Shown here: in pieces, positions 5,646-51,145 of the stretch
How positions within the stretch are numbered: the first letter of the stretch is position 1
Layout of the letters: every line of letters begins with the position of its first letter
From: Candidatus Woesearchaeota archaeon
Lineage (GTDB): Archaea; Nanobdellota; Nanobdellia; Pacearchaeales; UBA12030
Assembly: GCA_964361585.1 (NCBI GenBank)
Contig: CAYIBB010000002.1
Span: forward strand, 1 to 51,672
Length of the DNA stretch: 51,672 bases
Reading direction: 5' to 3'
Program-made: the position numbers and the translations under genes
Notes under the pieces: model-generated
Seen by the model: only the letters and a program-made list of their open reading frames with translations
Database searches by the model: none
What the model was told of the DNA's origin: nothing

Positions 5646-6134
5646 ATGGTATTGCCAAGGAGAAAGCTGCCAGACCCAAAAGGCTCATATCCCTATAGAG
5701 ATTCAGCTTTTGATACCGATAATCCTTTCTTTTTATCAAATTTAACTACTGATGCCAATGTGGCTGCACTTGGTTTAGAGATGGTGTTAAGAGGCATAGC
5801 TTCTAGAGATCCTGGTTATTCGCAGAGATTATATATGCAAGGTCTTATGGCAACTTCAATCGTGTATCATGCAACTAAAATAAACCTTAAAAAACATCAG
5901 AGGTGGAGAGCTTTAGGAAGGAGTTTATTACTTTTAGAAGTTAATAAGATATTAAGAGGAAATTTACAAGTAACTGGTTACGAGTCATTGGACCAACTTA
6001 CAAAAGATGCTGAACAAATTGCTAGCGTATTTGAACACTTAATCAAAGGAGAGATCGTACCAGAGAAAGATTTAATAAAAGGTCAAAACTTTTTGAATAA
6101 CCTCTCTGGCGTATACCTGTCAAGTATAGAATGA
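5646..6134 (+). CDS. Hypothetical protein
   Basis: 162-aa ORF in an otherwise stop-rich AT-rich background; no motif recognised. Confidence 0.5.
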   Translation: MVLPRRKLPDPKGSYPYRDSAFDTDNPFFLSNLTTDANVAALGLEMVLRGIASRDPGYSQRLYMQGLMATSIVYHATKINLKKHQRWRALGRSLLLLEVNKILRGNLQVTGYESLDQLTKDAEQIASVFEHLIKGEIVPEKDLIKGQNFLNNLSGVYLSSIE

Positions 6135-6235
6135 TGTTGCAAGGAATAAGAGATCCTTTTATACACTATGTCTAGCATCAACTATTTCTTAATTCTAAGA
6201 AAGATTTTTTAATCAAGACTTTTTCTTTTACTTGT

Positions 6236-6319
6236 GCCTCGGTAGCTCAAAGGTAGAGCATCGGTTTTGTAAACCGGAGGTTGAGGGTTCAATATAAAAT
6301 GAAAATCCCTCCCGAGGCT
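6236..6319 (+). tRNA. tRNA-Thr (anticodon UGU) with a ~12-nt insertion in the T-loop
   Basis: Hand-folded cloverleaf: acceptor GCCTCGG/CCGAGGC, D-arm GCTC-AAAGGTA-GAGC, anticodon arm TCGGT-TTTGTAA-ACCGG, T-stem GAGGG/CCCTC. The T-stem encloses 19 nt (TTCAATATAAAATGAAAAT) instead of 7. Confidence 0.85.
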
Positions 6320-6328
6320 TAATTTTAA

Positions 6329-6742
6329 CTAGTGCCCAATACTAATCTCTTTTAATTTCTCGATGACTTCCTCTTCTATAAGATACTCTTTAATATACTC
6401 ATCCCACTCTTTGGGGTTCCATACTTGAAAATGACCGAAACAACCTATAGCCTTTACTGTAGAACCATTAGAAATACCGATTTTTGATAATTCTGAAGAT
6501 GTCAATTGAATCCTACCTTCGTTATCGACAGAAATTGGATTTTTGCGGGGTTTTTCGCCTACAACTTTTTCGTAATTTGTTGTAGGAATACATCCTAAAA
6601 ATCTGAATGGCACGGTCATTCCAGGAATTAGATCGCTAGCTACAACAATCAATTCTAAACTTCTCCACTTTGTCGGCAAAAAAATTCTACCCCTATCAAC
6701 ACATAGATTGTATTCTCCTGAATATCTCCTTTCATACGTCAT
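6329..6742 (-). CDS. MraZ-like double SpoVT/AbrB-domain protein
   Basis: Two MraZ-type DxxxR repeats: YSGEYNLCVDRGRIFLPTKWR and SVDNEGRIQLTSSELSKIGISNGSTVKAIGCFGHFQVWNPKEWDEY. Start moved to Met40 of the ORF-track entry (6742) because the longer form overlaps tRNA-Val. Confidence 0.6.
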   Translation of the reverse strand: MTYERRYSGEYNLCVDRGRIFLPTKWRSLELIVVASDLIPGMTVPFRFLGCIPTTNYEKVVGEKPRKNPISVDNEGRIQLTSSELSKIGISNGSTVKAIGCFGHFQVWNPKEWDEYIKEYLIEEEVIEKLKEISIGH

Positions 6743-6778
6743 TTTTCCAATACCTAGCCTAAAAATACATCCAGAAAG

Positions 6779-6789
6779 TATTTTAAAAA
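6779..6789 (+). promoter_or_regulatory. TATA-box candidate for tRNA-Val
   Basis: tattttaaaaa centred about 27 nt upstream of the tRNA 5' end, the usual archaeal TATA spacing. Confidence 0.45.
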
Positions 6790-6811
6790 CCTTTCTCCCT
6801 GCATTAGTTAA

Positions 6812-6945
6812 GGGCCCGTGGTCTAGTGGTTTAACCTTTTTGGAAAAAAGCTTAACCAAAAAGAATAAATAGAAAAACTAAAAACTCCACAAATGACGCT
6901 TCGTTGACGTCGAAGAGATCCTCGGTTCGAGTCCGAGCGGGCCCA
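6812..6945 (+). tRNA. tRNA-Val (anticodon GAC) with a ~60-nt D-loop intron
   Basis: Acceptor GGGCCCG/CGGGCCC plus A73, anticodon arm CTTCG-TTGACGT-CGAAG, T-arm CTCGG-TTCGAGT-CCGAG. D-stem GTCT...TGAC is separated by 69 nt, which includes an internal hairpin TTTTTGG/CCAAAAA. Confidence 0.85.
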
Positions 6946-6981
6946 TACTAACTTTTTTAAATTTCAAGATATTCAACAAAG

Positions 6982-7626
6982 ATGCAAGAACAAAAAAGAG
7001 TGAATGAGATTCTTAACATATTGAAGAAGAATTATCTAGCAGCAAAAACCACCTTGAGGAATGAAAATCCACTCGAGTTACTTGTGGCAACAATACTTTC
7101 TGCGCAGTGTACGGATGAAAGGGTGAATAAAGTTACACCTGAACTTTTTAGGAAATATAAGAGTGCGAAGGACTTTGCAGAGGCTGATATAAAAGAGCTT
7201 GAGAGCTTAATAAGGTCAACAGGATTTTACAGAAATAAGGCTAAGAACATTAAGGCTGCATGTAAAATTATTCACGGGAAGTATGGAGGAAAAGTTCCTC
7301 ATACAATGGTGGAGCTTATTCAACTTCCTGGAGTTGCACGCAAGACTGCAAATATTGTGCTTAGTGCTGGCTATGGAATTATTGATGGAATTGCAGTTGA
7401 TACGCATGTAAGACGCGTGTCCTTCCGTCTTGGGCTTACGAAGAATACAGATCCTAACAAGATTGAACAAGATTTAATGAAGCAAATTCCAAGAAAAGAA
7501 TGGGCTGATACAAGCTTCCGCATAATTCTACATGGCAGAGCAATTTGCAAGGCTCCAACTCCTTTCTGCAGTAAATGTCCTTTCAATAAAGTATGCCCTA
7601 AAGTTGGGGTTACAAAGAAATATTAA
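6982..7626 (+). CDS. nth: Endonuclease III (DNA glycosylase/AP lyase)
   Basis: HhH-GPD region (LPGVARKTANIVL) and C-terminal 4Fe-4S cluster loop CKAPTPFCSKCPFNKVC. Confidence 0.9.
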   Translation: MQEQKRVNEILNILKKNYLAAKTTLRNENPLELLVATILSAQCTDERVNKVTPELFRKYKSAKDFAEADIKELESLIRSTGFYRNKAKNIKAACKIIHGKYGGKVPHTMVELIQLPGVARKTANIVLSAGYGIIDGIAVDTHVRRVSFRLGLTKNTDPNKIEQDLMKQIPRKEWADTSFRIILHGRAICKAPTPFCSKCPFNKVCPKVGVTKKY

Positions 7627-9158: not shown

Positions 9159-11087
9159 ATGAAAAGAGGACAATTAAGCCTATTTGTAATTATAGCCCTC
9201 GTAATAATTATTGTAGCATCAGCTCTATTCCTTACTTTCTATTTCGGCCCTGTAAGCATTGAACAGATTCCCACAAAGTTCCGACCCTTTGAGGAGTCAT
9301 ATCTTTCCTGTCTCGAGAACTTGATTATGGATGGAGCTAAGACTCTTGGTCAGCAGGCAGGATATGTAAATGTTCCAGCTACCGAGCCAGGAAGTGAATT
9401 TATGCCTTTTGGAAATAATCTTAACTTTCTAGGCAGAGAGATTCCGTACTGGTATTATGTAAGTGCTAATAATCTTGAAGTTTCCAAAATTCCATCGATT
9501 GGCTTTATGAATTCTGAACTTGAAAGTTATGTTGAGGAAAATATTGGCAAATGCAACTCTGTTGTGTCAAATTTTGAGGAACAGGGCTTCGAGATAATTA
9601 CAGCAAGGAACGCAGTGGCAGATGTTAATGTCAAGGATGAGGAAATTTCTGTTTCTGTGAATTATCCAATAACTCTCACTTTAGGAGATACGAAGACGAG
9701 GATTAATTCCCATAATGTTAAACTTTTAGTTAGCTTAGGAAGGCTATATGAAATAGCTAAGAAAATCATGGAGACAGAAAATTCAGACATGTTTGTGGAA
9801 CAGCGCACTATTGACTTACTATCTCTTTATAATGAGTTACCTTCAACTAAGGTCACTTTAGAGTGTAATCCTCAAAGGTGGCAGTATAGTAAAGTTCAAG
9901 GTGCACTTAAGAATGTTATAGCAAATAATATTCAGTTTTTAAAGATAAAAGGTACAAATTATGCAAAGTCTGATAACTACTTTGAAATTCCCGTTGATAG
10001 TGTATCAGCTAGAGATGTAAATGTTAACTTTTTATTTATAGAGCAGCCATTCAAGTTAGAAATAACTCCTGAAAATCTTGAGGGTGAGAGCATCACTGAA
10101 CTAGCTCCTCAATTCCTTCGCAGCTTTTTGTGCCTTTCCTCTTACGATTTTGTGTATGATGTTTCGTATCCTGTTCTAGTTGTGCTACACGATGACAATA
10201 ATTTTGTATTTCAGTTTCCTTTTACTGCTGTAGTGGATAACAATCAGCCTCGCAAGAATCTTTTGGCTGAGGATTTTGGGCAGGTAGATGTGCCTCTTTG
10301 TGGACATAAACTTGCCTTCGGAAAAATATCAACTTACGAAGCTCAAGATGAAAATTTAGTCCCCCTTGAGGGTGTTGATGTAAGCTACAAGTGTATTAAC
10401 TCTATGTGTCATATTGGTCAGACTGAATTGCAGGGCACAGATGCAGTGCTTGAAAATACGCTTCCTCAATGCGTGAATGGCTTTATCATAGCTGAAAAGG
10501 ATGGCTACGCAAGAACAAAACAACAGATTTCTACCAATGTTGATAGTTTAGAAACACAACTTGTGCTTAATAAACTCAATAAGTTGGATGTTAATCTAAG
10601 AATTATTGATCTAAATGGAAATGAAAGAAGCCTTGGCAGTAATGAATTTGCTCTAGTATCTATAGTTGAAGAAGATCGAGAGTTTCAGCAAAGTTTGGTT
10701 TATCCTGAGGATAGTGAAATTGAACTCACAGGAGGACTTTATGAGGTTAAGATTCAGCTCTTTAAGGATCAAGTAACAACCTTTGAGCCACAGAAAATCG
10801 AAAATTGTATAAAAGTTCCAGCAAGTGGAATTTTAGGGATCTTTGGAGCAAAAGAAGAGCAGTGCAATACAGTAGAAATTCCAGCTCAGGAAGTTACTCA
10901 GATGCTTTTCGGTGGAACTTCCTTTAATTGGTTTGTTCAGAAAAGTGATATTGAGAATGCAAACAGAGTCACCCTCTACGCTATTGAGTATGATGTTCCT
11001 GGATTGGTGGATGATCTAAGTAAAATTTATCTTGAACTTGAAGTTAATTCGCAATACGATGTATTTAAGCAGCCAGAATTTAGCTAG
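9159..11087 (+). CDS. Large secreted/surface protein with a type IV pilin-like (class III) signal peptide
   Basis: N-terminus MKRGQ-LSLFVIIALVIIIVASALFL fits the archaeal prepilin-peptidase pattern [KR]-G-[Q]-[L] followed by a hydrophobic helix. The remaining 610 aa have no recognised domain. Lies 25 nt upstream of the giant ORF on the same strand. Confidence 0.7.
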   Translation: MKRGQLSLFVIIALVIIIVASALFLTFYFGPVSIEQIPTKFRPFEESYLSCLENLIMDGAKTLGQQAGYVNVPATEPGSEFMPFGNNLNFLGREIPYWYYVSANNLEVSKIPSIGFMNSELESYVEENIGKCNSVVSNFEEQGFEIITARNAVADVNVKDEEISVSVNYPITLTLGDTKTRINSHNVKLLVSLGRLYEIAKKIMETENSDMFVEQRTIDLLSLYNELPSTKVTLECNPQRWQYSKVQGALKNVIANNIQFLKIKGTNYAKSDNYFEIPVDSVSARDVNVNFLFIEQPFKLEITPENLEGESITELAPQFLRSFLCLSSYDFVYDVSYPVLVVLHDDNNFVFQFPFTAVVDNNQPRKNLLAEDFGQVDVPLCGHKLAFGKISTYEAQDENLVPLEGVDVSYKCINSMCHIGQTELQGTDAVLENTLPQCVNGFIIAEKDGYARTKQQISTNVDSLETQLVLNKLNKLDVNLRIIDLNGNERSLGSNEFALVSIVEEDREFQQSLVYPEDSEIELTGGLYEVKIQLFKDQVTTFEPQKIENCIKVPASGILGIFGAKEEQCNTVEIPAQEVTQMLFGGTSFNWFVQKSDIENANRVTLYAIEYDVPGLVDDLSKIYLELEVNSQYDVFKQPEFS

Positions 11088-11112
11088 GAAATTTTAATAT
11101 CTAAACGAAAAG

Positions 11113-14100
11113 ATGAATAAAAGAGGAATTAAAATTGTAGAGAAGTTTATTGCAATCTTCTTAATTTTACTTTTAGTAACATCTTCTATAATATATATCC
11201 CTTCATCAACTGCGCAGCAGCAAACGCAGAATGTTAATAATGTCCCTACAGAATTTCCTACAACTACAGTAGTTACCGCAACTCCTTCAGGACCTGTAAT
11301 AACTACTGACTTTATTCCGGCTCAGTTCATTAATGCCTCGCAAGACTTTCTAGTCTTTGTGGACGATTACGAGCCGAAAGTTGTTCGTAGTGACCTTTTG
11401 GAGGAACAGTCAGTTCCAGTTTATGCGAAACTCAGGCTTTTGAATTCAAATCCTCTTATCGAACCAATAATAAGAGATGTGAATGTAAGGCAAACTGAAT
11501 TCAACAATTTTGTTGCTGGAGTAGGACATTTGGATCCACCCGGAAGAAAATTTACTACTGATAATGTTGGTTATGCTATCATTTTCTTGCGAGGAGGGCT
11601 TCCAGAGAAGGAAATTCCCGACAAATTAGACATAAAGGCACAGGCTGACATTATTTATGATTATCAATTCACTCCAGGAGTAAGGCGCGAAGACTTTGTG
11701 CTTGTTCCTTTAAGTGATGATGACTTCGAGGCATTGCAGTTAGAGCATTCCTTTTGGAATAGAGCAGGCTATATTCGAGTAATGGAAGTAAGGGAGAGTT
11801 CTGCTCGTGTTCAAGTTTATGATGGCCTCCGTAATGTGATTGGCAGTTTCGACTTGACCTTACAGCGACCTCAGAGTGCTCCCTTTAAAGCCACAAGGAC
11901 TGCATTCACAACACATGCTGCAACTGGATTTGCAGTAGTACAACTTAATAATATTGAGTTCCCTCAGACAAGAGCAAAGCTGCTAGTAAATGTTAATGGT
12001 CATGAACAAGTTAGAGAAGTTGCAAAAGGCGCAGCTATTTATGAAGGCTCACAATGGTTTGTTGAGGACATTTTCATTATAGATGAGATTAGAGGAACTG
12101 GCTCAGTAGTCTTGAGGAAGAAAGGTACTCCTGAAAGTGTAACTTTGGAATTGAGTAGTCTAGAGGAGGAGAAGAAAGAGGAAGCAAAGAAACTTGCAGC
12201 TCCGATTGAAATTGCGACTAATAAGATAATAGCTTTAGCAAGAGATGAAAGTAAATACATGGGTAAGCCTTACATATGGGGTGGTGAAGCTCTAGAAGAA
12301 GGAGGCTTTGACTGCAGCGGTTTAGTTTATGCTATTTATAACGAATTAGGATTAATTAAAGATAGGCTAACTGCACATGCTTATTACAATTTGTTTAAAC
12401 CTAATGGTCCTGGACTTGACTCAAGTAAATGGAAATCAGGAGATGTTTGCTTTTTTGATTGGGGAAAAGATGGCAAAATAGATCATGCTGCAATTTACAG
12501 TGGATTTCGGAATGGGAATCATTGGGTAATTGATGCCTCTTCAACCCAAAGGCCTGTTAGTGAAAGACCCGGAGTAATAGAAGGCGCAATATCCGAAAAT
12601 AAATTCAAAGGCTGCTTTCGAGTTCCTGGAGCTGAGAAGTATCAGAGTCAAAGTTCACAACCAAACACAAATTCCCCCTCCCCCTCAACCGCATTACCAT
12701 TACCACCAATAGCAACAGCTGCAATTCTTGTTGATGCTCCAGGGAGTGAAGTGCAAGATTCACTTAAGCAAAAGCCAGAATCATGGCCTCAGGGATTTTC
12801 ACTTGAAAAGACAACATTTGATGGAATAAATTATTACAGGGCTTTCATCTCTCAAGAAGAAAGTGAAATTAAAACTTACATTTACAAATCTGAGGATTTT
12901 TCTGTTGGCAAGTCCTTTAAGGTAATTTTAAGGAAGGAAGGATTTTCTGGAAGCGTAACTCTTGTTGGCAGTAAAACTGAAGGTTATACCCAACTTGTGT
13001 TGTTTGATGTAGTAGGCAGAGAGGAAGGCAGGAAGCCAATCAGCATTTCATACGACTCCGTATTCTCTAACACTTACACAATAAATGATGCAATTAATGA
13101 GGCATTGAAGATAAGAGGGGCTGAGAGAGTGGAGATTCCGGCAACTGCGCAGGAGGCTTATAATGAAGCAGTCTCAGCATATTGGGAAGTTGTGAATACT
13201 TTTCCATTCCTAGAGATAGAGGATGAGCAGGACAAGGCCACCCATCAATTTTGGGCAGTAAAAGCACTTCGAGGAATCGTAAGCTTAAGCGATCACTTTA
13301 TACAGCAAAGCTTGAATGTACAAAGGGCTAAGGATGAAAAGATAAGGGCTCTTACTTACTTGAAGGAAAATTATGCGGAACAATTTACAAGAGAAGATGA
13401 GCAGGAACTTAATAGACTCTTTAATTATGATGTGAGTAAGGCCACAGATTCTTTGCTTGAAGATTCCAATACTATAGTGGTATCATTACAGAAAATTAAT
13501 TTCCCAAAAAATAAATTTACTGAATTCTCTCTTGATGGTACTTACTCTGGGGATATATTTTCAGTAGGTAAGCTTTTTGAAGGTTCTGAGTTAGGAGCCT
13601 TGAGTAGTGTAGAAATTTCTGACATTTCAGCTAATCAAGTTACCTTCAACATAGGAAGTGCTCCTAAAACTTTAGGAATCGGCCAGCAAGAAACTTTCGG
13701 GGGAATTACATTCAAGTTAATTGATACGCCAGAGACCGAAGAAATAACAACGACAGAAGGAGAAAGAACTACCTCAAAAGTCAGAAAAGCAAAACTTGAG
13801 ATTTCAATCTCAAATTCACGCGCAAAACTAAAGGAAAATGATTACTTTCTTGGCTGGAAAGTGGATAGCATTAATCCTGACACTGTGATTTTGAAAAAGG
13901 AACAATCCACTAAGTTCTTGCGCAAGGGAATCAACAAAGTTGCATTTCCTCCATCTCTTGATATTACTGTACTTAATTTGAATATTCCCCGTGAAGTAAG
14001 CTTAAGTGTGGTTCCATACACTATTGGAGGCCGTTCTACAGTTTCATTCGATCTACATGTTGCTGTCGAGAAAAGGCTTATTAAAATAGGACCTAAGGCT

Positions 14101-17100
14101 GCGGCAGAACAGGCAAACAAAACTAGAGAAATTTCAGCGCAGATAAAGAAAATCACTGACAGTTTAGGCAATTCTATTGAGACTGGAAAACAAGCATGCT
14201 TTGCAACTTATTCTGCCCTTCTTCTAAAAAACTTTGTACAGAGCTATAAGGGAGAAGCTGTTGCAAGAAAGCGAGTTATGGATTCATTCAAAGATGAATG
14301 CAAAGACAAAGTAGGATTTAACAAACAGTATAATAATTATCATGAATGCTTCCTTGCGCAGGAAAATGAGATTGAGCGTGCAGTTGGAGATATGCAAAAG
14401 GCTATTGATAAGACTGATGCATTGTTGAAGGAAGTGACTGTAAAGAAAGAAGACATCACTGAAGTTGATCCTAATAAATTGAAAGAAGTTCTAAAGAGAG
14501 AATTCCCGAATGTTGATATTGATGAACAAATAAACACTATTTCAAGGTATGAGGAAAAAGCAGGCCATGAAATCTTGTTGCCAAGTGAAGTTAAGGAATT
14601 GGTATTTACACTTTCTGCAAATAAGGAATTTTCTGATGAGAAAGATGGAAGTGTGTTGCGAGAAGATTACAAAGTAAGGACTGATAATAAGGTTAATTTC
14701 TATAATGAAAATGCAGAGGAATTTACTAAAGTACTTGCAGAGTACGAAGAATTTAAACAGAAACTTAAAGATCAGAGCATAAGTCCAGACATGTCTGATC
14801 CAGAGCTACTCAATTATTTCCTTGAGATTAGGCAGCAGCAAGGAACACTTTATGCTCCTCAAGCTATAACATCAGGAGGAAAAACTTACGTCTACGTGTA
14901 TCAAACTAAAGAATGGAAAGAGGCAGAGCGAGAAGGTAATACATTAACTTATACGATAGAAAAAGATGAAAAGAAGGAAAAAATTACAATTCCAATTAAA
15001 ACCTCGTGTGTTGATCAAAAAGAAGGATATCAGATTCAGTATTATGGTTCAGGAAGTAATAGTGGATTGCCTGCAGTAGTTCCATTTCCCATTGAAAGTG
15101 GAGAAGGGTACATTAAAGTTAACAAGTATGATAGCAGCGGGAAGCCTCTCGAGACTTTATTGCATGTTCCTATAGCAGGAGATTGTCAGAACATTTTTTA
15201 CAGAGCAGGTCAAGATATTCCTTCTGTATGGAAGAACTCCATAGATAAAGGACTTGAGGCAGTAAGAATTGCTACTCTTGTTCAGATGAAAGAAGCAGGA
15301 AGAAAGGCTTTCATCTTTGGCAAGGCATATCCCATAGGAAGGCAGATTGTGGAAGCTCCTTCTGCTCAATGTGAGGATTTCATGTCTATAAGCGACTGCG
15401 AAATTCTTTTTCAAGTATGCGATCCTGTAATGTGTCCTAGTTCAAGATGTAACTTTGGAGGAAGATGGCAGGTTTCAGATGTTGTGCAGACAGGAGTTAT
15501 AGGCAGTATCGCATTATGTGCTCCAAACTTCCCACATCCAGTACTTCCTGTATGTTTACCAGGGGTTAGGGCAGGGCTTCTTAATTATGCGAGCATTTTA
15601 GATGCGTATGCCCAGTGCCTTGATGAATCTCGTACCTCAGGAAAAACCACAGGAATTTGTGATCAAATCCGCTCCATTTATACCTGCGAGTTTATATGGC
15701 GAGAGGGAATGGCAATTGCAAATGCAGAAGGAGGACTTTTCGATATACTTTCAAGAACCTTATTCGGAGCCCAAAAAGGAGGCGGCGAGTATCTTGCATT
15801 CAAAGAAAACTTTGACAGAGTGGGAGAAAGTGTGAAATTCTTTACTTCCCAATATGCTGCAACTGCCTTCCAAGCATTCAGAGCAAGAAGCGGGGAAGAA
15901 GTTGGAAGTTTCATTTGCAAGGCTGCATTCTTCGGCAGACTTCCAGGAATAAGTGGAGTGTTTGAAGACCTAAGTAAGCCAGAAAGCCCTCCTCAGTTTT
16001 ATGGCTTCTTCGAGGAAATTCAACATTCAAGTGTAAGCACTCTTGGAGTATCTACTTTGTCAGCACCTCAATCTCAGTATAAGGTATTCTTTCACATTTT
16101 CGCAGGGGAAAATAAAGGAGTCTTCTACCGAGTTTACTTAACAGATCCTGTGCCTGTTCCAGGATTCTTTACAGCGCCTATATTAATAATTCCTCGTCCT
16201 GAGACGCAGGGCTTTATTCCTGCAAATCAGTTTAAAGACGAAACTCTCGATTTCCTCGCAACTTCAGGATACAGACAGCTCTGTGTAGAAATTGATGGAG
16301 TTCCTTACTGTGGCTTTAAGCAAACAACTTCTGATTTCCTTGTGAACTTTCTTAATGACAAGTACTTGAATGAACAGCTTAGTAAGAAAGTGACTAGTGC
16401 GCAGGAATGCATTTCTGGATCAAGCAGCCTACTTCCTTTGATTCCAGGAACTAATTTTGGATTGAGTGCAGGAGCTACAGAGAGCATCGAAGGAGGTGTG
16501 TTGCGAAGAGGTATTACTCGTGTGTGCAGCGAGGAAAATCCCGGTAAGGGAACAAACCCTGAAAGATGGGCTCAAGCGGGGAGTTGTGGAAAGGTCCAGA
16601 ATAAAGAACTTACATGTTGGCTTGATACCTCATCTGTAAAGGGAGCCATCACAGATCTCAAGTTTGAAACTGCAGTATTGCAAGATGCACAACAATTCAA
16701 CACGAAGTTCCTAGAGGAAGAGGGATTTTTCACTCCTGAAAAAACTGAAAGCGAGATTGAGAATTTGAGAGGCTTATTGCAGAATGCTAAAAGAAATGAG
16801 AATGCAGTTCTCAAGGGAGAATTCAAGCCAAGTTCTGCACAGGAAAGTTACCGAGAAGTTTTAGGAGCTTCACAAGTTCTTTTCGAGAAGACTTTAAATC
16901 CAGAGGCAAAGGCTGAAGCTAAGCTGACAGTAGCAGATGCAAATGCAGGCATAGCAAGAATTGTGCTTCAGGAGCAGATTATTGCTTACAAACAAAAGTT
17001 AAGAGAAAGAGTAGAGCAGGAAGCTGCAAGCCAATCCACACAGACAACTCCCCCTCAACCAACAACAACTCCTTCGATCCCCGCCACACCGACTACACCA

Positions 17101-17871
17101 ACTCCAACTCAACCAACACCAAGTGAAGAAATTGTGGAAAAGCAGATAGGAAATGTGCGGGCGGGAGATACTTTTAAGGTAGGACAATTTGACTTTAAAT
17201 TAATAAGAATGGAACAAGAGGTAAAGGATAATTTAGCCACCAATGAATTTGCTGCTGTTTTAGAAGTGGAATTTAATGGAGAATTATTAAGATGTTACGA
17301 TACACCAATTCCTCAGTTTGGTGCATTAAGGCTTAAAAGTGATGGTACTATAGATTATGGGTTAAATAAAAATATAGATCCAGAATGTAAAGACATAAGT
17401 TTCAAAGATGTTAGAAATACCCAATTTGCAATTGCTACTGCAGTCGTAACAGTTAAAATTTCTAAGGAAAATGAAATATCTAGTGGTAGCAAAATTAAAT
17501 TTGATAGTGATACAGATGAAGAATTTACTGTAAGAATGGGTAGTAAATACTTTATAATCAAATTCAAAGGATTTGATAATAAGAGACATCCTGATTTAGG
17601 ACGAGATGTTGGTGTTGCTATGCTCGAATTAAGAAGAGGAACTACTGCAGGAATTCAATATCTTGATTGCTGGAAAGGCCAAGGCATTGAAAGAAATGTT
17701 GTAGTATCAGCTGTTCCAACTTCTTCAACATATTTTGGAGATACTATATGGCAAGGATCAATTCCTAATTTTGATGGGATTGATCAAGCATTTTGTAGCG
17801 AAATATCCTTTGAGGACATCAAAGTTAATCTGAATGAGAATTCTATTGAAGCCACTATAGATCTAAAGTAA
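11113..17871 (+). CDS. Giant (2,252 aa) secreted multidomain protein with an NlpC/P60 domain
   Basis: Uninterrupted 6.76-kb ORF in a stop-rich AT-rich genome. It has an N-terminal signal-anchor (FIAIFLILLLVTSSIIY), an NlpC/P60 domain (aa ~365-505), Pro/Ser/Thr linkers (aa ~511-532 and ~1975-2005), a Cys-rich block (>=20 Cys, nt ~15000-16630) and two related C-terminal modules. Confidence 0.9.
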   Translation: MNKRGIKIVEKFIAIFLILLLVTSSIIYIPSSTAQQQTQNVNNVPTEFPTTTVVTATPSGPVITTDFIPAQFINASQDFLVFVDDYEPKVVRSDLLEEQSVPVYAKLRLLNSNPLIEPIIRDVNVRQTEFNNFVAGVGHLDPPGRKFTTDNVGYAIIFLRGGLPEKEIPDKLDIKAQADIIYDYQFTPGVRREDFVLVPLSDDDFEALQLEHSFWNRAGYIRVMEVRESSARVQVYDGLRNVIGSFDLTLQRPQSAPFKATRTAFTTHAATGFAVVQLNNIEFPQTRAKLLVNVNGHEQVREVAKGAAIYEGSQWFVEDIFIIDEIRGTGSVVLRKKGTPESVTLELSSLEEEKKEEAKKLAAPIEIATNKIIALARDESKYMGKPYIWGGEALEEGGFDCSGLVYAIYNELGLIKDRLTAHAYYNLFKPNGPGLDSSKWKSGDVCFFDWGKDGKIDHAAIYSGFRNGNHWVIDASSTQRPVSERPGVIEGAISENKFKGCFRVPGAEKYQSQSSQPNTNSPSPSTALPLPPIATAAILVDAPGSEVQDSLKQKPESWPQGFSLEKTTFDGINYYRAFISQEESEIKTYIYKSEDFSVGKSFKVILRKEGFSGSVTLVGSKTEGYTQLVLFDVVGREEGRKPISISYDSVFSNTYTINDAINEALKIRGAERVEIPATAQEAYNEAVSAYWEVVNTFPFLEIEDEQDKATHQFWAVKALRGIVSLSDHFIQQSLNVQRAKDEKIRALTYLKENYAEQFTREDEQELNRLFNYDVSKATDSLLEDSNTIVVSLQKINFPKNKFTEFSLDGTYSGDIFSVGKLFEGSELGALSSVEISDISANQVTFNIGSAPKTLGIGQQETFGGITFKLIDTPETEEITTTEGERTTSKVRKAKLEISISNSRAKLKENDYFLGWKVDSINPDTVILKKEQSTKFLRKGINKVAFPPSLDITVLNLNIPREVSLSVVPYTIGGRSTVSFDLHVAVEKRLIKIGPKAAAEQANKTREISAQIKKITDSLGNSIETGKQACFATYSALLLKNFVQSYKGEAVARKRVMDSFKDECKDKVGFNKQYNNYHECFLAQENEIERAVGDMQKAIDKTDALLKEVTVKKEDITEVDPNKLKEVLKREFPNVDIDEQINTISRYEEKAGHEILLPSEVKELVFTLSANKEFSDEKDGSVLREDYKVRTDNKVNFYNENAEEFTKVLAEYEEFKQKLKDQSISPDMSDPELLNYFLEIRQQQGTLYAPQAITSGGKTYVYVYQTKEWKEAEREGNTLTYTIEKDEKKEKITIPIKTSCVDQKEGYQIQYYGSGSNSGLPAVVPFPIESGEGYIKVNKYDSSGKPLETLLHVPIAGDCQNIFYRAGQDIPSVWKNSIDKGLEAVRIATLVQMKEAGRKAFIFGKAYPIGRQIVEAPSAQCEDFMSISDCEILFQVCDPVMCPSSRCNFGGRWQVSDVVQTGVIGSIALCAPNFPHPVLPVCLPGVRAGLLNYASILDAYAQCLDESRTSGKTTGICDQIRSIYTCEFIWREGMAIANAEGGLFDILSRTLFGAQKGGGEYLAFKENFDRVGESVKFFTSQYAATAFQAFRARSGEEVGSFICKAAFFGRLPGISGVFEDLSKPESPPQFYGFFEEIQHSSVSTLGVSTLSAPQSQYKVFFHIFAGENKGVFYRVYLTDPVPVPGFFTAPILIIPRPETQGFIPANQFKDETLDFLATSGYRQLCVEIDGVPYCGFKQTTSDFLVNFLNDKYLNEQLSKKVTSAQECISGSSSLLPLIPGTNFGLSAGATESIEGGVLRRGITRVCSEENPGKGTNPERWAQAGSCGKVQNKELTCWLDTSSVKGAITDLKFETAVLQDAQQFNTKFLEEEGFFTPEKTESEIENLRGLLQNAKRNENAVLKGEFKPSSAQESYREVLGASQVLFEKTLNPEAKAEAKLTVADANAGIARIVLQEQIIAYKQKLRERVEQEAASQSTQTTPPQPTTTPSIPATPTTPTPTQPTPSEEIVEKQIGNVRAGDTFKVGQFDFKLIRMEQEVKDNLATNEFAAVLEVEFNGELLRCYDTPIPQFGALRLKSDGTIDYGLNKNIDPECKDISFKDVRNTQFAIATAVVTVKISKENEISSGSKIKFDSDTDEEFTVRMGSKYFIIKFKGFDNKRHPDLGRDVGVAMLELRRGTTAGIQYLDCWKGQGIERNVVVSAVPTSSTYFGDTIWQGSIPNFDGIDQAFCSEISFEDIKVNLNENSIEATIDLK
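12205..12627 (+). other. NlpC/P60 papain-like hydrolase domain inside the giant ORF
   Basis: GKPYIWGGEALEEGGFDCSGLVYAIY (Cys401, nt 12313-12315), ...GKIDHAAIYSG (His458, nt 12484-12486) and ...GNHWVIDAS (His470): the canonical Cys-His-His arrangement and spacing. Confidence 0.8.
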
Positions 17872-17900: not shown

Positions 17901-18401
17901 TTAAGCCCTTTCTAGTTCTTCAATAAGCTGTATATAAAGTTCTTGAGAAATTCTAAAGCCAAAGAGGAGTAATTTATTTATTAATTCTAATGCTTCTTTT
18001 TTATTTATTAAACTTTTTCTATATGCTATCAAAATCACATAAAGTGTACCTTTAACATTAAAACCAAAACTTTCAGCAATTGCTCTAGCAGAAGCATCAT
18101 CAACAAGAACAAGGGAGGGCTTTAGTTTTTTTGCTAAACTTATTAAAGCTACTTCTCCTAAATCTAATTCAGGAACAAATTTTTCTAATTCTTTGTCTTT
18201 TTCAACAGATTTTATTTTAATCCAACCTTTCTTTATTGCTTCTTCAATAACAAGAGCATCAGCAAATTTTTCTTCTTTCCCTTTTAAAATTTCTTTACAA
18301 ACCTCTTCTGGAATAAGAATAGAAGTGAAAAGTTTCTTTAATAGTCCTAGTCTACCGAGTTTAGATAAATAAATTAAAGGACTTGCATTTGAGATTATCA
18401 T
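17901..18401 (-). CDS. PIN-domain protein (DUF3368/COG2405-type putative toxin)
   Basis: N-terminus IISNASPLIYLSKLGRLGLLKKLF..ILIPEEV and downstream LVDDASAR match the COG2405 PIN-like pattern. Starts 1 nt after the UPF0175 gene. Confidence 0.7.
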   Translation of the reverse strand: MIISNASPLIYLSKLGRLGLLKKLFTSILIPEEVCKEILKGKEEKFADALVIEEAIKKGWIKIKSVEKDKELEKFVPELDLGEVALISLAKKLKPSLVLVDDASARAIAESFGFNVKGTLYVILIAYRKSLINKKEALELINKLLLFGFRISQELYIQLIEELERA

Positions 18402-18402
18402 A

Positions 18403-18705
18403 TCATGCTAAGGCCTTCAAATCCTCTTTTAACTCCTTTTGGCCATATTGTGCAGGCACTTTTCTCTCTCTTATAATTTCCATCATCTTCCAAAGGGATA
18501 TACCAGCAAGTCTTGCAGCCTTCCATAATGTGGTTTTTCCCTCTTTATAGAGCTTAATTGCTTCTTCAATCTTTTTTTCTTTTATACCTAAAACCAATAG
18601 TTCTCTCATAATCTTAGACTTGTCTTTACCCTCAACTTCTGAGAGTTTTTTTATTTCCATATCAACTTCTAAAGGTAACCTAAAGGTCATCAACTTCCCT
18701 TTCAT
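18403..18705 (-). CDS. UPF0175-family (COG2886) putative antitoxin
   Basis: 100 aa with the UPF0175 C-terminal HTH-like motif LYKEGKTTLWKAARLAGISLWKMMEIIRERKVP. Paired with the PIN gene. Confidence 0.7.
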   Translation of the reverse strand: MKGKLMTFRLPLEVDMEIKKLSEVEGKDKSKIMRELLVLGIKEKKIEEAIKLYKEGKTTLWKAARLAGISLWKMMEIIRERKVPAQYGQKELKEDLKALA

Positions 18706-18761: not shown

Positions 18762-18880
18762 TGCGGGGAACAGGATTCGAACCTGCGCAGGCACTAAGCC
18801 ACTAGGTCCTAAGCCTAGCCCGTATAGTCTAATCCTTTTTTTTACGATTTTAGATTATTTGACCACTCCGGCATCCCCGC
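18762..18880 (-). tRNA. tRNA-Leu (anticodon UAG), class II, with a ~33-nt D-loop intron
   Basis: Reverse complement folds as acceptor GCGGGGA/TCCCCGC plus A73, anticodon arm CTAGG-CTTAGGA-CCTAG, long variable arm (GGC-TTAGT-GCC) and T-arm GCAGG-TTCGAAT-CCTGT. D-stem CCG...CGG encloses 46 nt, including the helix TAATC/GATTA. Confidence 0.85.
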
Positions 18881-18992: not shown

Positions 18993-19493
18993 ATGAACTT
19001 ACACAGATTTTTAAAAGAAAATGTAGGAGCCAGAAAAATATTTGGCAGAAGAGAACTAAGAATTATTGAGAAGCAGTTAATGGGAGTTAACTTAACACAA
19101 TCAGAAAAGAATAGGCTTTCAAGGGATATAAGAAAGAAGTTTGAGTTTATTAATAAAGTTTCAAGATTTGAAAATGAATTTGAATTAAAAAAGGGAGCAG
19201 AAATTAAGAGAATTATAGAAGAAACGAGGGAAATTATCTTATCCAACACTTTGTTTAAGAAAATCCAAAAAATCATTCTATACGGTTCAGTTGTTGAGAA
19301 TAAATTAACTTTCAGATCGGATATAGATATAGCAGTTCAATTTGACAATATAAATTTAAAAGAGGCTACTTTATTCAAAAAAACAATTTCTGGAAGAGTA
19401 AGTCAGAGAGTCAATGTAGAAGTTTATAATTATTTACCCCAAAAAATCAAGAAAGAAATTGACATTAAAGGGAAAATTATCTACAAAAAATGA
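18993..19493 (+). CDS. Nucleotidyltransferase-domain protein (MNT-type antitoxin-like)
   Basis: Minimal nucleotidyltransferase motif ILYGSVVENKLTFRSDIDIAV (GS-x9-SDxD). Followed by a HEPN remnant. Confidence 0.75.
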   Translation: MNLHRFLKENVGARKIFGRRELRIIEKQLMGVNLTQSEKNRLSRDIRKKFEFINKVSRFENEFELKKGAEIKRIIEETREIILSNTLFKKIQKIILYGSVVENKLTFRSDIDIAVQFDNINLKEATLFKKTISGRVSQRVNVEVYNYLPQKIKKEIDIKGKIIYKK

Positions 19494-23759: not shown

Positions 23760-24356
23760 ATGAAAGGAAAGATCAAGCAAGTAGAGATTAAACAGAAACC
23801 TGAAAAGGAAAGACAAGAGCATCATGTAAAGGAAAAGATAAAGCCTTTCAAGGCAACAATTGTAGGGGAACGCATTGTGAGTGTGGATAAGGAAGCCAAG
23901 AGACTTTATGATATGAGTAATTTTGGCGAAATTGCTGAGGATAAGGTGTACTATTCGCTTGTTGAATCTCTCTACCTTTTAGAGAAGAAGAAAATTAAAA
24001 TCTATGATTGTAGAAAGGCACTGAATTTTGATGTTTTACTCAAGAAAGCCAGCACATTAGAACCTAACTTTTATACCCGCTTTAGAGTATTTAGAGATAT
24101 GAGAAATAAAGGATACATAATTAAGACTGCACTCAAATTCGGAGCTGACTTTCGTGTCTATGACCGTGGAATAAAGCCGGGTCAGGAACATGCGCGATGG
24201 ATTCTCTATCCAGTCTATGAGGGCTCACATTTGACATGGCATGAATTTGCCGCTAAGAATAGAGTTGCACATTCAACAAGAAAGAGACTCCTTATGGGTG
24301 TTGTAGATGATGAGGGAGATGTTACTTACTGGGAAATTAGATGGATGAGGCCTTGA
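23760..24356 (+). CDS. endA: tRNA-splicing endonuclease, catalytic alpha-type subunit
   Basis: C-terminal catalytic domain KFGADFRVYDRG...EHARWILYPV...HSTRKRLLMGVV carries the Tyr/His/Lys catalytic residues. A ~30-aa Lys-rich N-terminal extension is present; 198 aa. Confidence 0.85.
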   Translation: MKGKIKQVEIKQKPEKERQEHHVKEKIKPFKATIVGERIVSVDKEAKRLYDMSNFGEIAEDKVYYSLVESLYLLEKKKIKIYDCRKALNFDVLLKKASTLEPNFYTRFRVFRDMRNKGYIIKTALKFGADFRVYDRGIKPGQEHARWILYPVYEGSHLTWHEFAAKNRVAHSTRKRLLMGVVDDEGDVTYWEIRWMRP

Positions 24357-26033: not shown

Positions 26034-26119
26034 TGCCTCGGGGGGGATTCGAACCCCCGACTTCTGCCTTACTCAAAAAATTCATGAGAGCAGCGCTCTA
26101 CCAACTGAGCTACCGAGGC
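26034..26119 (-). tRNA. tRNA with CAU anticodon (elongator Met or Ile2) carrying a 13-nt intron at or near the canonical 37/38 site
   Basis: Acceptor GCCTCGG/CCGAGGC plus A73, D-arm GCTC-AGTTGGTA-GAGC, anticodon stem CTGCT/GGCAG enclosing 20 nt (CTCATGAATTTTTTGAGTAA), T-arm GGGGG-TTCGAAT-CCCCC. The acceptor stem is not initiator-like. Confidence 0.8.
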
Positions 26120-26633: not shown

Positions 26634-26739
26634 TGGACTCGCCGGGATTCGAACCCGGAATCTCTCCCCAGCCAAGGGAGCATTCTTTAACAAACTTTTC
26701 ACGCTTTTTTCAAAAAGTTTACCGTTGAACTACGAGCCC
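26634..26739 (-). tRNA. tRNA-Ala (anticodon GGC, G3:U70) with a ~32-nt D-loop intron
   Basis: Acceptor GGGCTCG/CGAGTCC (G3:U70 Ala identity pair) plus A73, anticodon arm CTCCC-TTGGCTG-GGGAG, T-arm CCGGG-TTCGAAT-CCCGG. D-stem GTTC...GAAT encloses 41 nt, including the hairpin AACTTTT/AAAAGTT. Confidence 0.85.
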
Positions 26740-28237: not shown

Positions 28238-28353
28238 TAGCCCCGCCAGGATTTGAACCTGGGTTCCAGGCTCCAAAGGCCTGTGTGCTTAGTCTGCCTT
28301 TTTTCCAATTAAATCTTAGGAAAAAGATTAATTGACCGCTACACCACGGGGCT
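28238..28353 (-). tRNA. tRNA-Gln (anticodon UUG) with a ~43-nt D-loop intron
   Basis: Acceptor AGCCCCG/CGGGGCT (A1:U72, typical archaeal Gln) plus A73, anticodon arm CAGGC-CTTTGGA-GCCTG, T-arm CCAGG-TTCAAAT-CCTGG. D-stem GTGT...GCAC encloses 52 nt, including the helix TTTTTCC/GGAAAAA. Confidence 0.85.
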
Positions 28354-38548: not shown

Positions 38549-39817
38549 TTATTGAGAGGCAATTGTAAATGGTGCGTCGTTAAAGTCGGTGGCGACGATG
38601 AATTCTCCTGTAGGAGAGAACGAGGCCCCTGAACTCCCTTCAAGAACTTCTTGAACCGCAATATAATACTTATCAGCTGTTTGAAATTCTATCCAATCAG
38701 TAATTTTCCATGTATAGGTAAAATCTCCAGCTTCAGAACTCAATGGCACATTGGTAGCAATCCAAGCCAACATTCCTTTATCTTTATTCAATAATGCGAT
38801 GCTTACTTTGCGGTTATCAATGCCCTTTGCTTTCCAGCTAATGGCCACCTCTGTGCCTGGCACAAATGTTTCTCCACCATTTGGTGAGAGAACTTGGATT
38901 TCAGAATGAGGAACTATGCTAAATGTTTCATCACTTATATCCCAATTTCCAGGCTTGTTTGCAGCATAATCCCAGAAGAGAAGCTGGTCCTTTTCATTTT
39001 CTGATAGTATGAGGATCTTGTATCTGCCTGGAGTTAGATAATAGCACGTTGATCCCCAAACCTCTTTGCACACAACGAATGGATTCCAAGAATCTAGTAT
39101 AATATTTTCTCCAGTACTCGGGTCAAAGAAGGAATTACCACCATAGCCAAGATACGGACCGGTATAGCCTGTACCTGCTGGAAATGGAAGGGTCCCGCCC
39201 AGTATATAACCTACGATAAGATCAGTTGGGTCGGCGTTATTGGTTGCACTCTCTTTTACTAGCATGACCTGGAACTTTCCCTTCCCTCCAGAAAACTTAA
39301 GATCATAATATTCACCCCTCCAGTGCACCCGATCATCGAGGATGTAATAGTACCCTTGGAGTAATTCTTCGCCACCATTAGGATAAACTACAGTCACTGG
39401 TGGTGCTGTTTTACAATTTCCATTGAATCTCTTAATTACAGCCTTGCTTTTTCCTTCATTGCAGTAATCGTATATCTCATCACCGCAAATAGAAGTTGCC
39501 TGCACAGATTCACCGCGTTGGCTTTGTGATGCACTATTCAGACATGCTGCAAATGCTCTTGTGCCACTTTCCTGACTAAGTCCAATAATCTTTTTGGCAG
39601 TATGCTGTTCATAGCATGGTCGAACTTCAGTAGAAGTACAATTTAAAGAAGCTATAGAAAATGCTGAAGTAGCTTTTTGATTATTCATCAAAGAAAAAGC
39701 GACAACCCCGAAAAATACAATTAAGACTAATACGACAATTCCAAAGTTACTCTTCTCATTTGGCTTTGAACTTACCTTTGCGATTTCACCCTCTTTTTTA
39801 TCCTTCAAATAAGCCAT
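38549..39817 (-). CDS. Secreted/membrane-anchored hypothetical protein
   Basis: N-terminal signal-anchor (FGIVVLVLIVFFGVVAFSL), a Cys-containing extracellular region, and two beta-rich modules beginning PNGGE (VVYPNGGEELL, VLSPNGGETFVPGTEVAISWKAKG). Confidence 0.6.
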   Translation of the reverse strand: MAYLKDKKEGEIAKVSSKPNEKSNFGIVVLVLIVFFGVVAFSLMNNQKATSAFSIASLNCTSTEVRPCYEQHTAKKIIGLSQESGTRAFAACLNSASQSQRGESVQATSICGDEIYDYCNEGKSKAVIKRFNGNCKTAPPVTVVYPNGGEELLQGYYYILDDRVHWRGEYYDLKFSGGKGKFQVMLVKESATNNADPTDLIVGYILGGTLPFPAGTGYTGPYLGYGGNSFFDPSTGENIILDSWNPFVVCKEVWGSTCYYLTPGRYKILILSENEKDQLLFWDYAANKPGNWDISDETFSIVPHSEIQVLSPNGGETFVPGTEVAISWKAKGIDNRKVSIALLNKDKGMLAWIATNVPLSSEAGDFTYTWKITDWIEFQTADKYYIAVQEVLEGSSGASFSPTGEFIVATDFNDAPFTIASQ

Positions 39818-51002: not shown

Positions 51003-51006
51003 AAAG

Positions 51007-51145
51007 AGCAAGGGGTGGGATTCGAACCCACGAAATACGCGGTAGCCGCTTTTCTTTGTGGAGCTTTCCTATTTTCTTGATTAAACTTCTTTTCTAAAGA
51101 AGTTTATCTGCAGCCGCGCGCCTTAGACCACTTGGCTACCCTTGC
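51007..51145 (-). tRNA. tRNA-Cys (anticodon GCA, U73) with a 64-nt intron in or next to the anticodon loop
   Basis: Acceptor GCAAGGG/CCCTTGC plus U73 (Cys identity), D-arm GCC(A)-...-GGC, anticodon stem CGCGG/CCGCG enclosing 71 nt that begin CTGCAGA, T-arm GTGGG-TTCGAAT-CCCAC. Confidence 0.8.

Follow-up and report, generated by a model that had tools for sequence, protein, structure and literature searches.

A 51.7-kb stretch of DNA from a Candidatus Woesearchaeota archaeon (contig CAYIBB010000002.1 of assembly GCA_964361585.1; 51,672 nucleotides, hereafter the window) carries two adjacent genes, geneA and geneB, that encode a partner protein with a predicted membrane anchor and a secreted giant. 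We find that the two genes form a fixed pair across related archaea. A giant gene follows geneA at every locus that could be evaluated, the pair sits at a conserved core-genome position, and what is conserved in the giant is a non-enzymatic scaffold in which peptidoglycan hydrolases of different families have been exchanged, here an NlpC/P60 cysteine peptidase. We propose, with about an even chance of being right, that the products constitute a two-protein surface complex, with geneA as anchor and stalk and geneB as a scaffold whose NlpC/P60 cargo acts on bacterial walls upon contact.

Few archaea without cultured members are as abundant as the Woesearchaeota and Pacearchaeota. An operon that is universal in them, is conserved at the level of ribosomal proteins and has repeatedly captured murein-only enzymes would count among the most direct genomic evidence for physical interaction of many of these archaea with bacteria.

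geneA and geneB form a conserved pair in the core genome

The two open reading frames (ORFs) point in the same direction, lie 25 nt apart and take up 16.9% of the window, in line with an initial annotation made from the sequence alone, which had put the share at about 17%. Their GC content equals that of the surrounding window. Both frames are reproducible because an independent, fragmented metagenome-assembled genome (MAG) holds near-identical pieces of them at 99.8–100% identity (residues 1–148, 308–888 and 898–1541 of geneB, residues 1–130 and 441–642 of geneA). Together they span roughly 60% of geneB and half of geneA, and to that extent verify the continuity of the frames. Since a TATA-like box precedes geneA (Table 1) and the 25-nt gap is too short for a second promoter at normal spacing, the two genes are probably transcribed together, and the box is a candidate promoter of a leaderless transcript. 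Scanning both proteins against Pfam and NCBIfam returned a single match, to NlpC/P60 at residues 384–483 of geneB (E = 2.9e-12).

Relatives of geneA occur in at least 557 species-representative Nanoarchaeota genomes, of which the 80 best loci were fetched with their flanks. Two had less than 400 nt of sequence downstream of geneA and could not be evaluated. At all of the other 78, the N-terminal domain (N-domain) of a giant is encoded downstream of geneA on the same strand, and the giant's Cys-rich core was detected in every locus with at least 4.5 kb of downstream sequence. Conservation of the pair in relatives had been set beforehand as a test of the initial annotation's proposal, and the pairing proved invariant. 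In five of five annotated contexts, an A-like gene lies directly upstream of a gene for a giant of 1,986–3,064 residues, on the same strand and with gaps of −8 to +37 nt. Judged from the best 80 loci, with which the source names from other searches agree, the giants are restricted to Pacearchaeota and Woesearchaeota (Nanoarchaeota in GTDB); these loci are labelled Nano-, Woese- or Pacearchaeota or unclassified archaeon, bar one 'Dojkabacteria' contig. On that contig (L053, JAFCCB010000019.1), whose label is 'Candidatus Dojkabacteria bacterium', an archaeal homologue of geneA is followed by the N-domain of a giant; it is probably a misbinned DPANN contig in the MAG of a candidate phyla radiation (CPR) bacterium.

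Synteny was counted over the 40 loci of at least 19 kb. The ribosomal protein gene S3Ae lies upstream of the pair in 35 of them, and S8e/TFIIB lie downstream in 26–27, whereas the toxin-antitoxin (TA), MNT, endonuclease III, transaldolase and Rieske genes of the window occur at none. The pair occupies a conserved core-genome position, and only its immediate neighbours in the window are lineage-specific insertions. The initial annotation had taken this context for a variable region, a view that the synteny does not support.

The same data bear on a mobile origin, by which the pair would be the remnant of a virus or mobile element and its hydrolase modularity would be that of a phage tape-measure or tail protein or of a conjugative VirB1/PrgK-like hydrolase. 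The matches of the NlpC/P60 region do include a PHROG 'minor tail protein' (4.9e-14) and, in the PDB, wall hydrolases of the Tn916 type, TA genes adjoin the pair in the window, and one relative has a DUF87 ATPase gene upstream. However, similarity to proteins of phages or conjugative elements is confined to the enzyme module. No member of the geneA family was found in 2.9 million viral contigs, the giant's core has no meaningful viral structural match, the position among ribosomal-protein genes is fixed across the lineage, the GC content is that of the window and the TA genes are missing from all 40 related loci. On the strength of the synteny, the absence from viral contigs, the lack of a viral fold match and the confinement of the PHROG match to the enzyme module, we rejected a viral or mobile origin, to which we give next to no credence.

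Two further arrangements were seen near the pair. In L006 (GCA_028714375.1), a 589-residue DUF87 (HerA/VirB4-like) ATPase is encoded at 5799–7568, between S3Ae and the pair, along with small ORFs of 157 and 63 residues, an arrangement present in no other locus; a 162-residue ORF of the window (5646–6134) has the same position as the 157-residue ORF. Among linked pilus, secretion or ATPase genes, which were looked for at the fetched loci, this ATPase is the single instance, and none recurs between loci. A short ORF of about 68 residues with two predicted transmembrane segments recurs at 15 fetched loci (for example, L081 9444–9650), where it shares the strand of geneA and lies some 350 nt ahead of it; the window lacks this ORF.

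The giant is a conserved scaffold with a Cys-rich core

The geneB product begins with a predicted Sec-type signal peptide. Most of 35 homologues examined start with a classical n-h-c signal that ends in an AxA-like site, and a class III regular expression fits 6 of the 35. No second hydrophobic segment was found in geneB beyond the signal. The modules that follow differ sharply in conservation (coordinates in Table 1). The N-domain is matched by BLASTP in 34 of the 35 homologues and in 200 of 212 giants, the mid module in 32–33 of the 35 and the Cys-rich core in 34, while the region between the first linker and the mid module is matched in 6 of 212 giants. This last region includes a helical stretch resembling tetratricopeptide repeats (TPR-like), for which the family profile weakly matches BamD/YfiO (E = 1.1e-3). 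AlphaFold2 (AF2) models the mid module as helices at a predicted local distance difference test score (pLDDT) of 70–86; the Lys/Glu-rich spacer behind it is little conserved and predicted to be helical with low pLDDT. Each of the three conserved modules (N-domain, mid module, core) can be aligned to 34 giants.

The core holds 19 Cys residues, most of them invariant across the family alignment, rather than the more than 20 first reported for this block. On several other points the initial description of the sequence was accurate: the Glu/Lys-rich spacer, both linkers and the Cys motif CEDFMSISDCEILFQVCDPVMCPSSRC (residues 1420–1446) all lie where it had placed them, and geneB reads, as suggested there, as a secreted, linker-jointed and probably disulfide-rich giant; its NlpC/P60 domain retains the triad residues. 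An exhaustive HMMER search with the core recovered at least 1,007 representative clusters (50% identity), of which 878 reach E ≤ 1e-30. With few exceptions these are proteins of 1,400–3,100 residues with the core near residues 1,000–1,800. Foldseek searches with the core model gave no PDB match at E ≤ 1e-3 and none of meaning in BFVD, returning coiled-coil noise only (TM score about 0.06), and profile searches of both families against PDB sequences gave nothing besides NlpC/P60 and the weak TPR-like BamD match. As modelled, the core appears to match no known fold in either structure database.

The C-terminal tail is an orphan. Its 247 residues have no homologue at E ≤ 0.01 and are matched in none of the 212 giants. 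It comprises two segments, each with two Cys residues and the motif C-x-(D/E)-ISF-(K/E)-D, which had been thought to be related modules. Pairwise alignment yields a common stretch of 10 residues, C(K/S)(D/E)ISF(K/E)D(V/I)(R/K), at E = 0.021. The shared motif stands, but the wider relatedness of the two segments is unproven. Self-BLAST found no internal repeats in geneB.

Peptidoglycan hydrolases are exchangeable cargo

The PF00877 match of geneB scores 46.9 bits, above the curated threshold of 23, and its PDB relatives are 3h41, 7cfl and 6b8c (E 1e-6 to 2e-5). In a HMMER alignment, C401 (GFDCSG), H458 (IDHAAIY) and H470, 12 residues further on, are in register with the catalytic triad of 3h41. 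The module is accordingly predicted to hold an intact Cys-His-His triad and to be catalytic. NlpC/P60 enzymes usually cleave the stem peptides of bacterial murein. The initial annotation called the giant enzyme-tipped; the module is instead an internal insertion behind the N-domain and makes up about 6% of the protein.

We surveyed the cargo of 213 sampled giants with locally built hidden Markov models (HMMs) and scanned 21 further giants with Pfam. A hydrolase-like module was found in 69 of the 213: SLT in 58, M23 in 10, and NlpC/P60, glucosaminidase and VanY in one each, with SLT and M23 together in two. The single NlpC/P60 is that of geneB. Other giants carry ankyrin repeats or nothing recognisable, and Amidase_3 appeared among the 21 further giants. 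Hydrolase family and insertion site both vary between giants, with two slots, one after the N-domain and one after the core (Table 1). The giant of GW2011_AR20 (L074), a large transglycosylase protein that reportedly comes from Castelle et al. 2015, has an SLT module in the first slot; geneB contains no SLT domain, and its NlpC/P60 fills that slot. Being present in 58 of 213 giants only, SLT is not what defines the family by homology. The same scaffold has thus been joined by murein-specific enzymes of six unrelated families, a convergence that would be hard to explain unless bacterial peptidoglycan were a recurrent target; these families act on different parts of murein, going by their Pfam descriptions and what is generally known of them.

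The closest relative of the geneB NlpC/P60 module, at 49% identity, lies in an otherwise unrelated protein of 1,508 residues (L087 8001–12527, GCA_053537055.1) with SdrD_B/SpaA Ig-like, SLT and NlpC/P60 domains. Its contig has the archaeal markers Pelota and THUMP, and the protein looks like another archaeal surface protein with two murein hydrolases.

The hydrolase modules could also be read as the purpose of the giant, with geneB a large secreted or loosely attached enzyme that scavenges the peptidoglycan of dead bacteria or kills competitors, and geneA an unrelated neighbour or a chaperone. Intact catalytic residues and the lack of an anchor in geneB would suit such an enzyme. Killing of bacteria by peptidoglycan hydrolases of archaea is on record (PMC12352652), and Pacearchaeota have been proposed to scavenge bacterial wall peptides (PMC11537232). 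However, the enzyme is absent in about two thirds of the homologues, while some 1,100 non-enzymatic scaffold residues are conserved; a free enzyme has no need of a disulfide-rich scaffold of 2,000 residues; and geneB is strictly linked to geneA and co-varies with it. We think this explanation improbable.

geneA carries a class III signal and a predicted Ig-like stalk

Sequence search detected 643 full-length homologues of geneA at 33–49% identity; the proteins of this family have about 610–670 residues. All ten Cys residues of geneA are invariant across 66 aligned homologues. Alone, geneA gave no Pfam match at E ≤ 1, no NCBIfam match and no PDB sequence match. Its N-terminus, MKRG↓QLSLFVIIALVIIIVASALFL (the arrow marks the predicted cleavage site), has the short basic start, the [KR][GAS] cleavage motif and the run of about 20 hydrophobic residues of a class III, or prepilin-type, signal. 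The family consensus over the 66 sequences is (K/R)(G/A/S)↓Q(V/L)T(I/V)F(I/V)IIA, with a hydrophobic helix behind it; Q5, the +1 residue, is invariant, and F9 and I11 are at least 90% conserved. A FlaFind-like pattern occurs within the first 25 residues in 93 of 120 homologues, the remainder having longer N-terminal extensions. The pilin-type signal recognised in the initial annotation is well upheld, and cleavage of geneA by a prepilin peptidase would be expected from it.

AF2 models geneA from 66 sequences at a mean pLDDT of 89.9, with helices at residues 2–29 and 39–65 and strands after them; no pilin is among the Foldseek matches to this region. Matches in the PDB are confined to the C-terminal β-sandwiches, and the head domain has none. 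The sandwiches match SdrD B domains, GBS52, SpaC, BcpA and CnaB2 (E 9e-8 to 4e-3), which suggests a stalk of immunoglobulin-like (Ig-like) domains resembling those of Gram-positive pilins and adhesins.

These features would also fit incorporation of geneA, as a minor or 'modular' pilin, into the tip of a type IV pilus whose machinery is encoded elsewhere, with geneB as a tip-bound adhesin or enzyme in the manner of PilY1, a more specific version of the surface complex proposed here. The class III signal, the invariant Q(+1) and the hydrophobic helix of about 20 residues favour it, as do the class III-signal proteins of the bindosome, which are encoded away from pilus machinery (bioRxiv 10.64898/2026.04.22.720090), and pili reported to join ultra-small cells to their hosts (PMC9938205). 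Set against them, no gene for a pilin, ATPase, platform protein or prepilin peptidase is linked to the pair, whether in the 51.7-kb window or within 6 kb upstream of geneA at the 80 loci; the Pfam class III signal model is silent on geneA; the ectodomain of 600 residues far exceeds those of known archaeal pilins; and Foldseek found no pilin among the matches to the head. We regard a pilus tip as something of a long shot.

Constraint, co-variation and sequon content

Over 37 loci, mean pairwise identity is 0.42 for geneA, 0.42 for the N-domain, 0.50 for the core and 0.46 for the ribosomal protein S3Ae. The divergence of geneA follows that of the core (r = 0.93; partial r = 0.62 given S3Ae, permutation p = 0.001), although the signal may be inflated, since the mirror-tree control is a single protein, S3Ae, that is short and noisy. 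The co-variation is suggestive of a functional or physical link between the two proteins.

Archaeal S-layer glycoproteins are usually rich in N-x-S/T sequons. geneA has none (5.4 expected) and geneB two (13.5 expected), a depletion that 0 of 2,000 shuffles reach. The ratios family-wide are 0.37 and 0.45, against 0.56 for the cytoplasmic proteins of the window. The depletion is real but weaker than it first appeared, since cytoplasmic proteins are also depleted. It is unexpected for archaeal surface proteins.

Constraint and sequons together bear on whether the pair could be the main envelope lattice, an S-layer analogous to SlaA/SlaB with geneA as the stalk, geneB as the canopy and the hydrolases as optional decorations. 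The layout invites this comparison: a large secreted protein and a smaller anchored one with an Ig-like stalk are encoded side by side at a conserved housekeeping locus in every evaluable genome. The scaffold is under strong purifying selection, most giants are free of enzymes, and a lattice would require no dedicated assembly genes, none of which are seen near the pair. However, neither protein resembles any solved S-layer protein in sequence or fold, and the dense sequons of such proteins are wanting. S-layer proteins are in general known to evolve fast, whereas the scaffold is as conserved as S3Ae, and one would not expect a lattice protein to have long flexible Pro/Ser/Thr and Glu/Lys linkers or to have captured murein hydrolases time and again. 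PDB profiles and Foldseek likewise found no match of either protein to S-layer or adhesin structures from free-living archaea, in keeping with the proposal of the initial annotation. We consider the lattice unlikely, though it is the alternative to which we give most weight.

A proposed surface complex acting on bacterial walls

In the complex that we propose, geneA would be exported by means of its class III signal and, once cleaved, would stay in the membrane, or in a short base resembling a pilus, through its hydrophobic N-terminal helix; from there it would project its α/β domain on the stalk of Ig-like domains. The geneB product, secreted by the Sec pathway and lacking an anchor of its own, would most likely be retained through binding to geneA. 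It would serve as a long, disulfide-stabilised scaffold built of the N-domain, the helical spacers and the Cys-rich core, onto which lineage-specific cargo is grafted at the two slots, a peptidoglycan hydrolase in about a third of lineages. The complex would contact bacterial cells, as host or prey, or wall debris, and would open or trim the wall locally. Contact with a host or prey is also what the initial annotation had put forward for the pair, and we infer it from the cargo.

Several observations weigh against this proposal. Wall cutting cannot be the universal function of the scaffold, since no hydrolase is recognisable in about two thirds of the giants. Conservation at the level of ribosomal proteins, together with universality, fits a housekeeping role in the envelope at least as well as a host-specific one. 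The case for an A–B interaction consists of gene linkage and the mirror-tree signal. The Pfam model for class III signals does not recognise geneA, nor was a pilin or class III-signal family seen among the 25 listed of the 30 Pfam families matched by the 66 homologues at E ≤ 0.1, which are scattered chance matches only; the genes that a pilus-like base might be expected to accompany are missing from the surroundings, as described above. The AF2 model of geneB residues 940–1900 is of medium confidence (pLDDT 65 overall, 70–88 in the core blocks), and literature searches found no expression, localisation, imaging or host data for these lineages.

A bolder extension of the proposed complex holds that the pair is the protein core of a cross-domain organelle with which Woese- and Pacearchaeota contact or penetrate bacterial cells, the anchored geneA stalk holding a giant scaffold with a new disulfide-rich fold and the cargo being matched, lineage by lineage, to the wall chemistry of the bacterial host. 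We treat this as possible though doubtful. If true, it would provide the first molecular handle on symbiosis between DPANN archaea and bacteria and allow the type of host to be predicted from sequence for hundreds of uncultured species; cargo type could then predict the chemistry of the host wall. The geneA head domain and the Cys-rich core of geneB also stand out as matching no solved structure.

Neighbouring genes and other features of the window

Upstream of the pair the window encodes, in order, S15, a DHH/Cdc45-like protein, S3Ae, endonuclease III, transaldolase and a Rieske protein; downstream follow the DUF3368/UPF0175 TA pair, the MNT-type nucleotidyltransferase, L37e, S8e, TFIIB, RNase Z and a tRNA-intron endonuclease. 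The TA and MNT genes downstream, and those for endonuclease III, transaldolase and the Rieske protein upstream, are lineage-specific insertions into a conserved S3Ae...L37e/S8e/TFIIB neighbourhood. The TA islet reported next to the module is present, with the MNT gene beyond it. The tRNA reported there is a sub-threshold tRNA-like element, at 26.9 bits against an Rfam gathering score of 47, which ARAGORN misses, intron mode included. Its acceptor stem reads GCGGGGA/UUCCCCGC and its T-arm CAGGUUCGAAUCCUG; the variable arm is long, the D-arm contains an insertion of 38 nt, and the anticodon in the loop CUUAGGA, UAG, would decode Leu. The element may be a tRNA-Leu with a non-canonical intron.

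Table 1. Features of the geneA–geneB locus and cargo modules of other giants. Nucleotide positions refer to the window; residue positions refer to the protein named.
Feature	Position	Strand	Remarks
TATA-like box TTTATAA	9125..9131	+	Read from sequence; ~28–34 nt before the geneA ATG
geneA	9159..11087	+	642-residue ORF; predicted membrane-anchored partner protein
geneA class III (prepilin-type) signal and hydrophobic N-terminal helix	9159..9245	+	Predicted; MKRG↓QLSLFVIIALVIIIVASALFLTFYF
geneA α/β ectodomain (head)	9273..10238	+	Residues 39–360, AF2; without clear structural match
geneA β-sandwich stalk (CnaB/transthyretin-like Ig)	10308..10988	+	Residues 384–610, AF2 and Foldseek
geneB	11113..17871	+	2,252-residue ORF; secreted giant protein
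geneB Sec-type signal peptide	11113..11217	+	Residues 1–35; probable cleavage STA↓QQQ, read by eye
geneB N-domain	11290..12162	+	Residues ~60–350; motif VVRSDLLEEQ
geneB Glu/Lys-rich spacer	12163..12228	+	Residues 351–372; 50% K+E
geneB NlpC/P60 cysteine-peptidase cargo module	12229..12627	+	Residues 373–505; Pfam PF00877
geneB Pro/Ser/Thr linker 1	12643..12708	+	Residues 511–532
geneB poorly conserved region	12748..13932	+	Residues 546–940; partly common to closest relatives only
geneB conserved mid module	13933..14442	+	Residues 941–1110; mostly long helices, 3 Cys
geneB Lys/Glu-rich helical spacer	14443..14997	+	Residues 1111–1295; 27% K+E
geneB Cys-rich core	14998..16797	+	Residues 1296–1895; predicted helical subdomain and β-sandwiches
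geneB Pro/Thr linker 2	17035..17127	+	Residues 1975–2005; 80% P+S+T
geneB orphan C-terminal tail	17128..17868	+	Residues 2006–2252; two segments of ~115–135 residues
TA pair (DUF3368 PIN-like and UPF0175)	17901..18705	-	
tRNA-like element	18763..18880	-	Between TA pair and MNT gene
Pol-beta/MNT nucleotidyltransferase	18993..19493	+	
M23 in giant P0001	Residues 379–471		Same slot as NlpC/P60 in geneB
SLT in giant AR20 (L074)	Residues 394–477		Same slot as NlpC/P60 in geneB
SLT in giant P0015	Residues 1878–1947		After core
Glucosaminidase in giant P0006	C-terminus		
VanY in giant P0014	C-terminus		
Amidase_3 in 2 of 21 further giants			E = 7.8e-49

Elsewhere in the window, intron-aware ARAGORN called five intron-containing tRNAs, namely Val-gac (61-nt intron), Met, Thr, Arg-cct and Cys (64-nt intron), at 6812–6945 (+), 26034–26119 (−), 26634–26739 (−), 28238–28353 (−) and 51006–51145 (−). 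The Val and Arg calls were missed by the default ARAGORN run and by Rfam. The tRNA-intron endonuclease is encoded at 23760–24356. The predicted tRNA-Val overlaps at its 5′ end with a 176-residue ORF at 6329–6859 (−) that weakly matches the MraZ domain (E = 4.4e-7), and one or the other call may be false. The window also encodes two more putative surface proteins. The one at 46928–48889 (+), of 653 residues, combines a Sec-type signal with Ig-like domains of the NPCBM_assoc/FixG_C type; the one at 38549–39817 (−), of 422 residues, has a hydrophobic segment near its N-terminus and an Ig domain resembling that of Kre9/KNH.

Comparison with known systems

SlaA/SlaB of the Sulfolobales shares with the pair the adjacency of a large secreted protein and a smaller anchored stalk protein with β-sandwiches, and its universality within a lineage. 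Unlike SlaA/SlaB, to which it has no sequence or fold similarity, the pair is depleted in sequons and has flexible linkers and enzyme inserts, and the anchor of geneA is an N-terminal class III signal rather than a C-terminal transmembrane helix. Sulfolobus bindosome proteins, bacterial modular pilins and PilY1-type tip adhesins likewise combine a prepilin-type N-terminus with a large ectodomain and are encoded away from pilus machinery. The geneA ectodomain is unrelated to theirs, however; no ABC transporter or type IV filament (TFF) genes are adjacent, and the partner is a Sec-secreted giant.

Phage tape-measure proteins and tail lysins and the conjugative Tn916 Orf14, PrgK and TcpG resemble geneB as structural giants with swapped SLT, M23, NlpC/P60, amidase and glucosaminidase modules for breaching walls. 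The scaffold of geneB is unrelated to them, and its gene is chromosomal, syntenic and universal in an archaeal lineage, encodes a Sec signal and has no phage or type IV secretion system genes nearby.

SPEARE giant proteins of Nanohaloarchaeota are DPANN surface proteins proposed for host contact. The cultivated Nanobdellota (YN1, Nanobdella) have an attachment organelle (PMC11420986). Both are, like the pair, DPANN-specific surface devices or giants proposed for host contact; the hosts of those symbionts are archaea without murein.

The nearest counterpart is a family that the initial annotation, which recognised none besides NlpC/P60, had missed. Castelle et al. 2021 describe 'fam00969', specific to Pacearchaeota and Woesearchaeota, as proteins of up to 3,000 residues with a lytic-transglycosylase domain, large and extracellular, that possibly attach to bacterial walls (PMC8204110). 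The same point about large transglycosylases in these lineages is made again by Vigneron et al. 2022 (PMC9723730) and in surveys published since. The AR20 giant (2,165 residues) has the N-domain, mid module and Cys-rich core, the core at 40% identity to that of geneB (E = 8e-109). By homology, geneB belongs to the family of the AR20 giant; its link to the number fam00969 goes through homology to AR20 and the published description. Taxa, size of up to about 3,000 residues and a proposed role in binding or degrading bacterial walls agree. The papers define the family by its transglycosylase, whereas geneB carries NlpC/P60, the conserved part is the non-enzymatic scaffold, and a partner with a class III signal is always paired with the giant. 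Our literature searches found no description of the partner gene, of the conservation of scaffold rather than enzyme, of the breadth of the cargo and its two slots or of the NlpC/P60 variant. A giant transglycosylase family, uncharacterised, was already known; the obligate partner, the conserved scaffold, the breadth of cargo and the NlpC/P60 variant, to judge from these searches, are new here. The published 'large transglycosylase' becomes a defined two-protein system of anchor, scaffold and cargo slots, with parts that can be used for expression and imaging and as markers.

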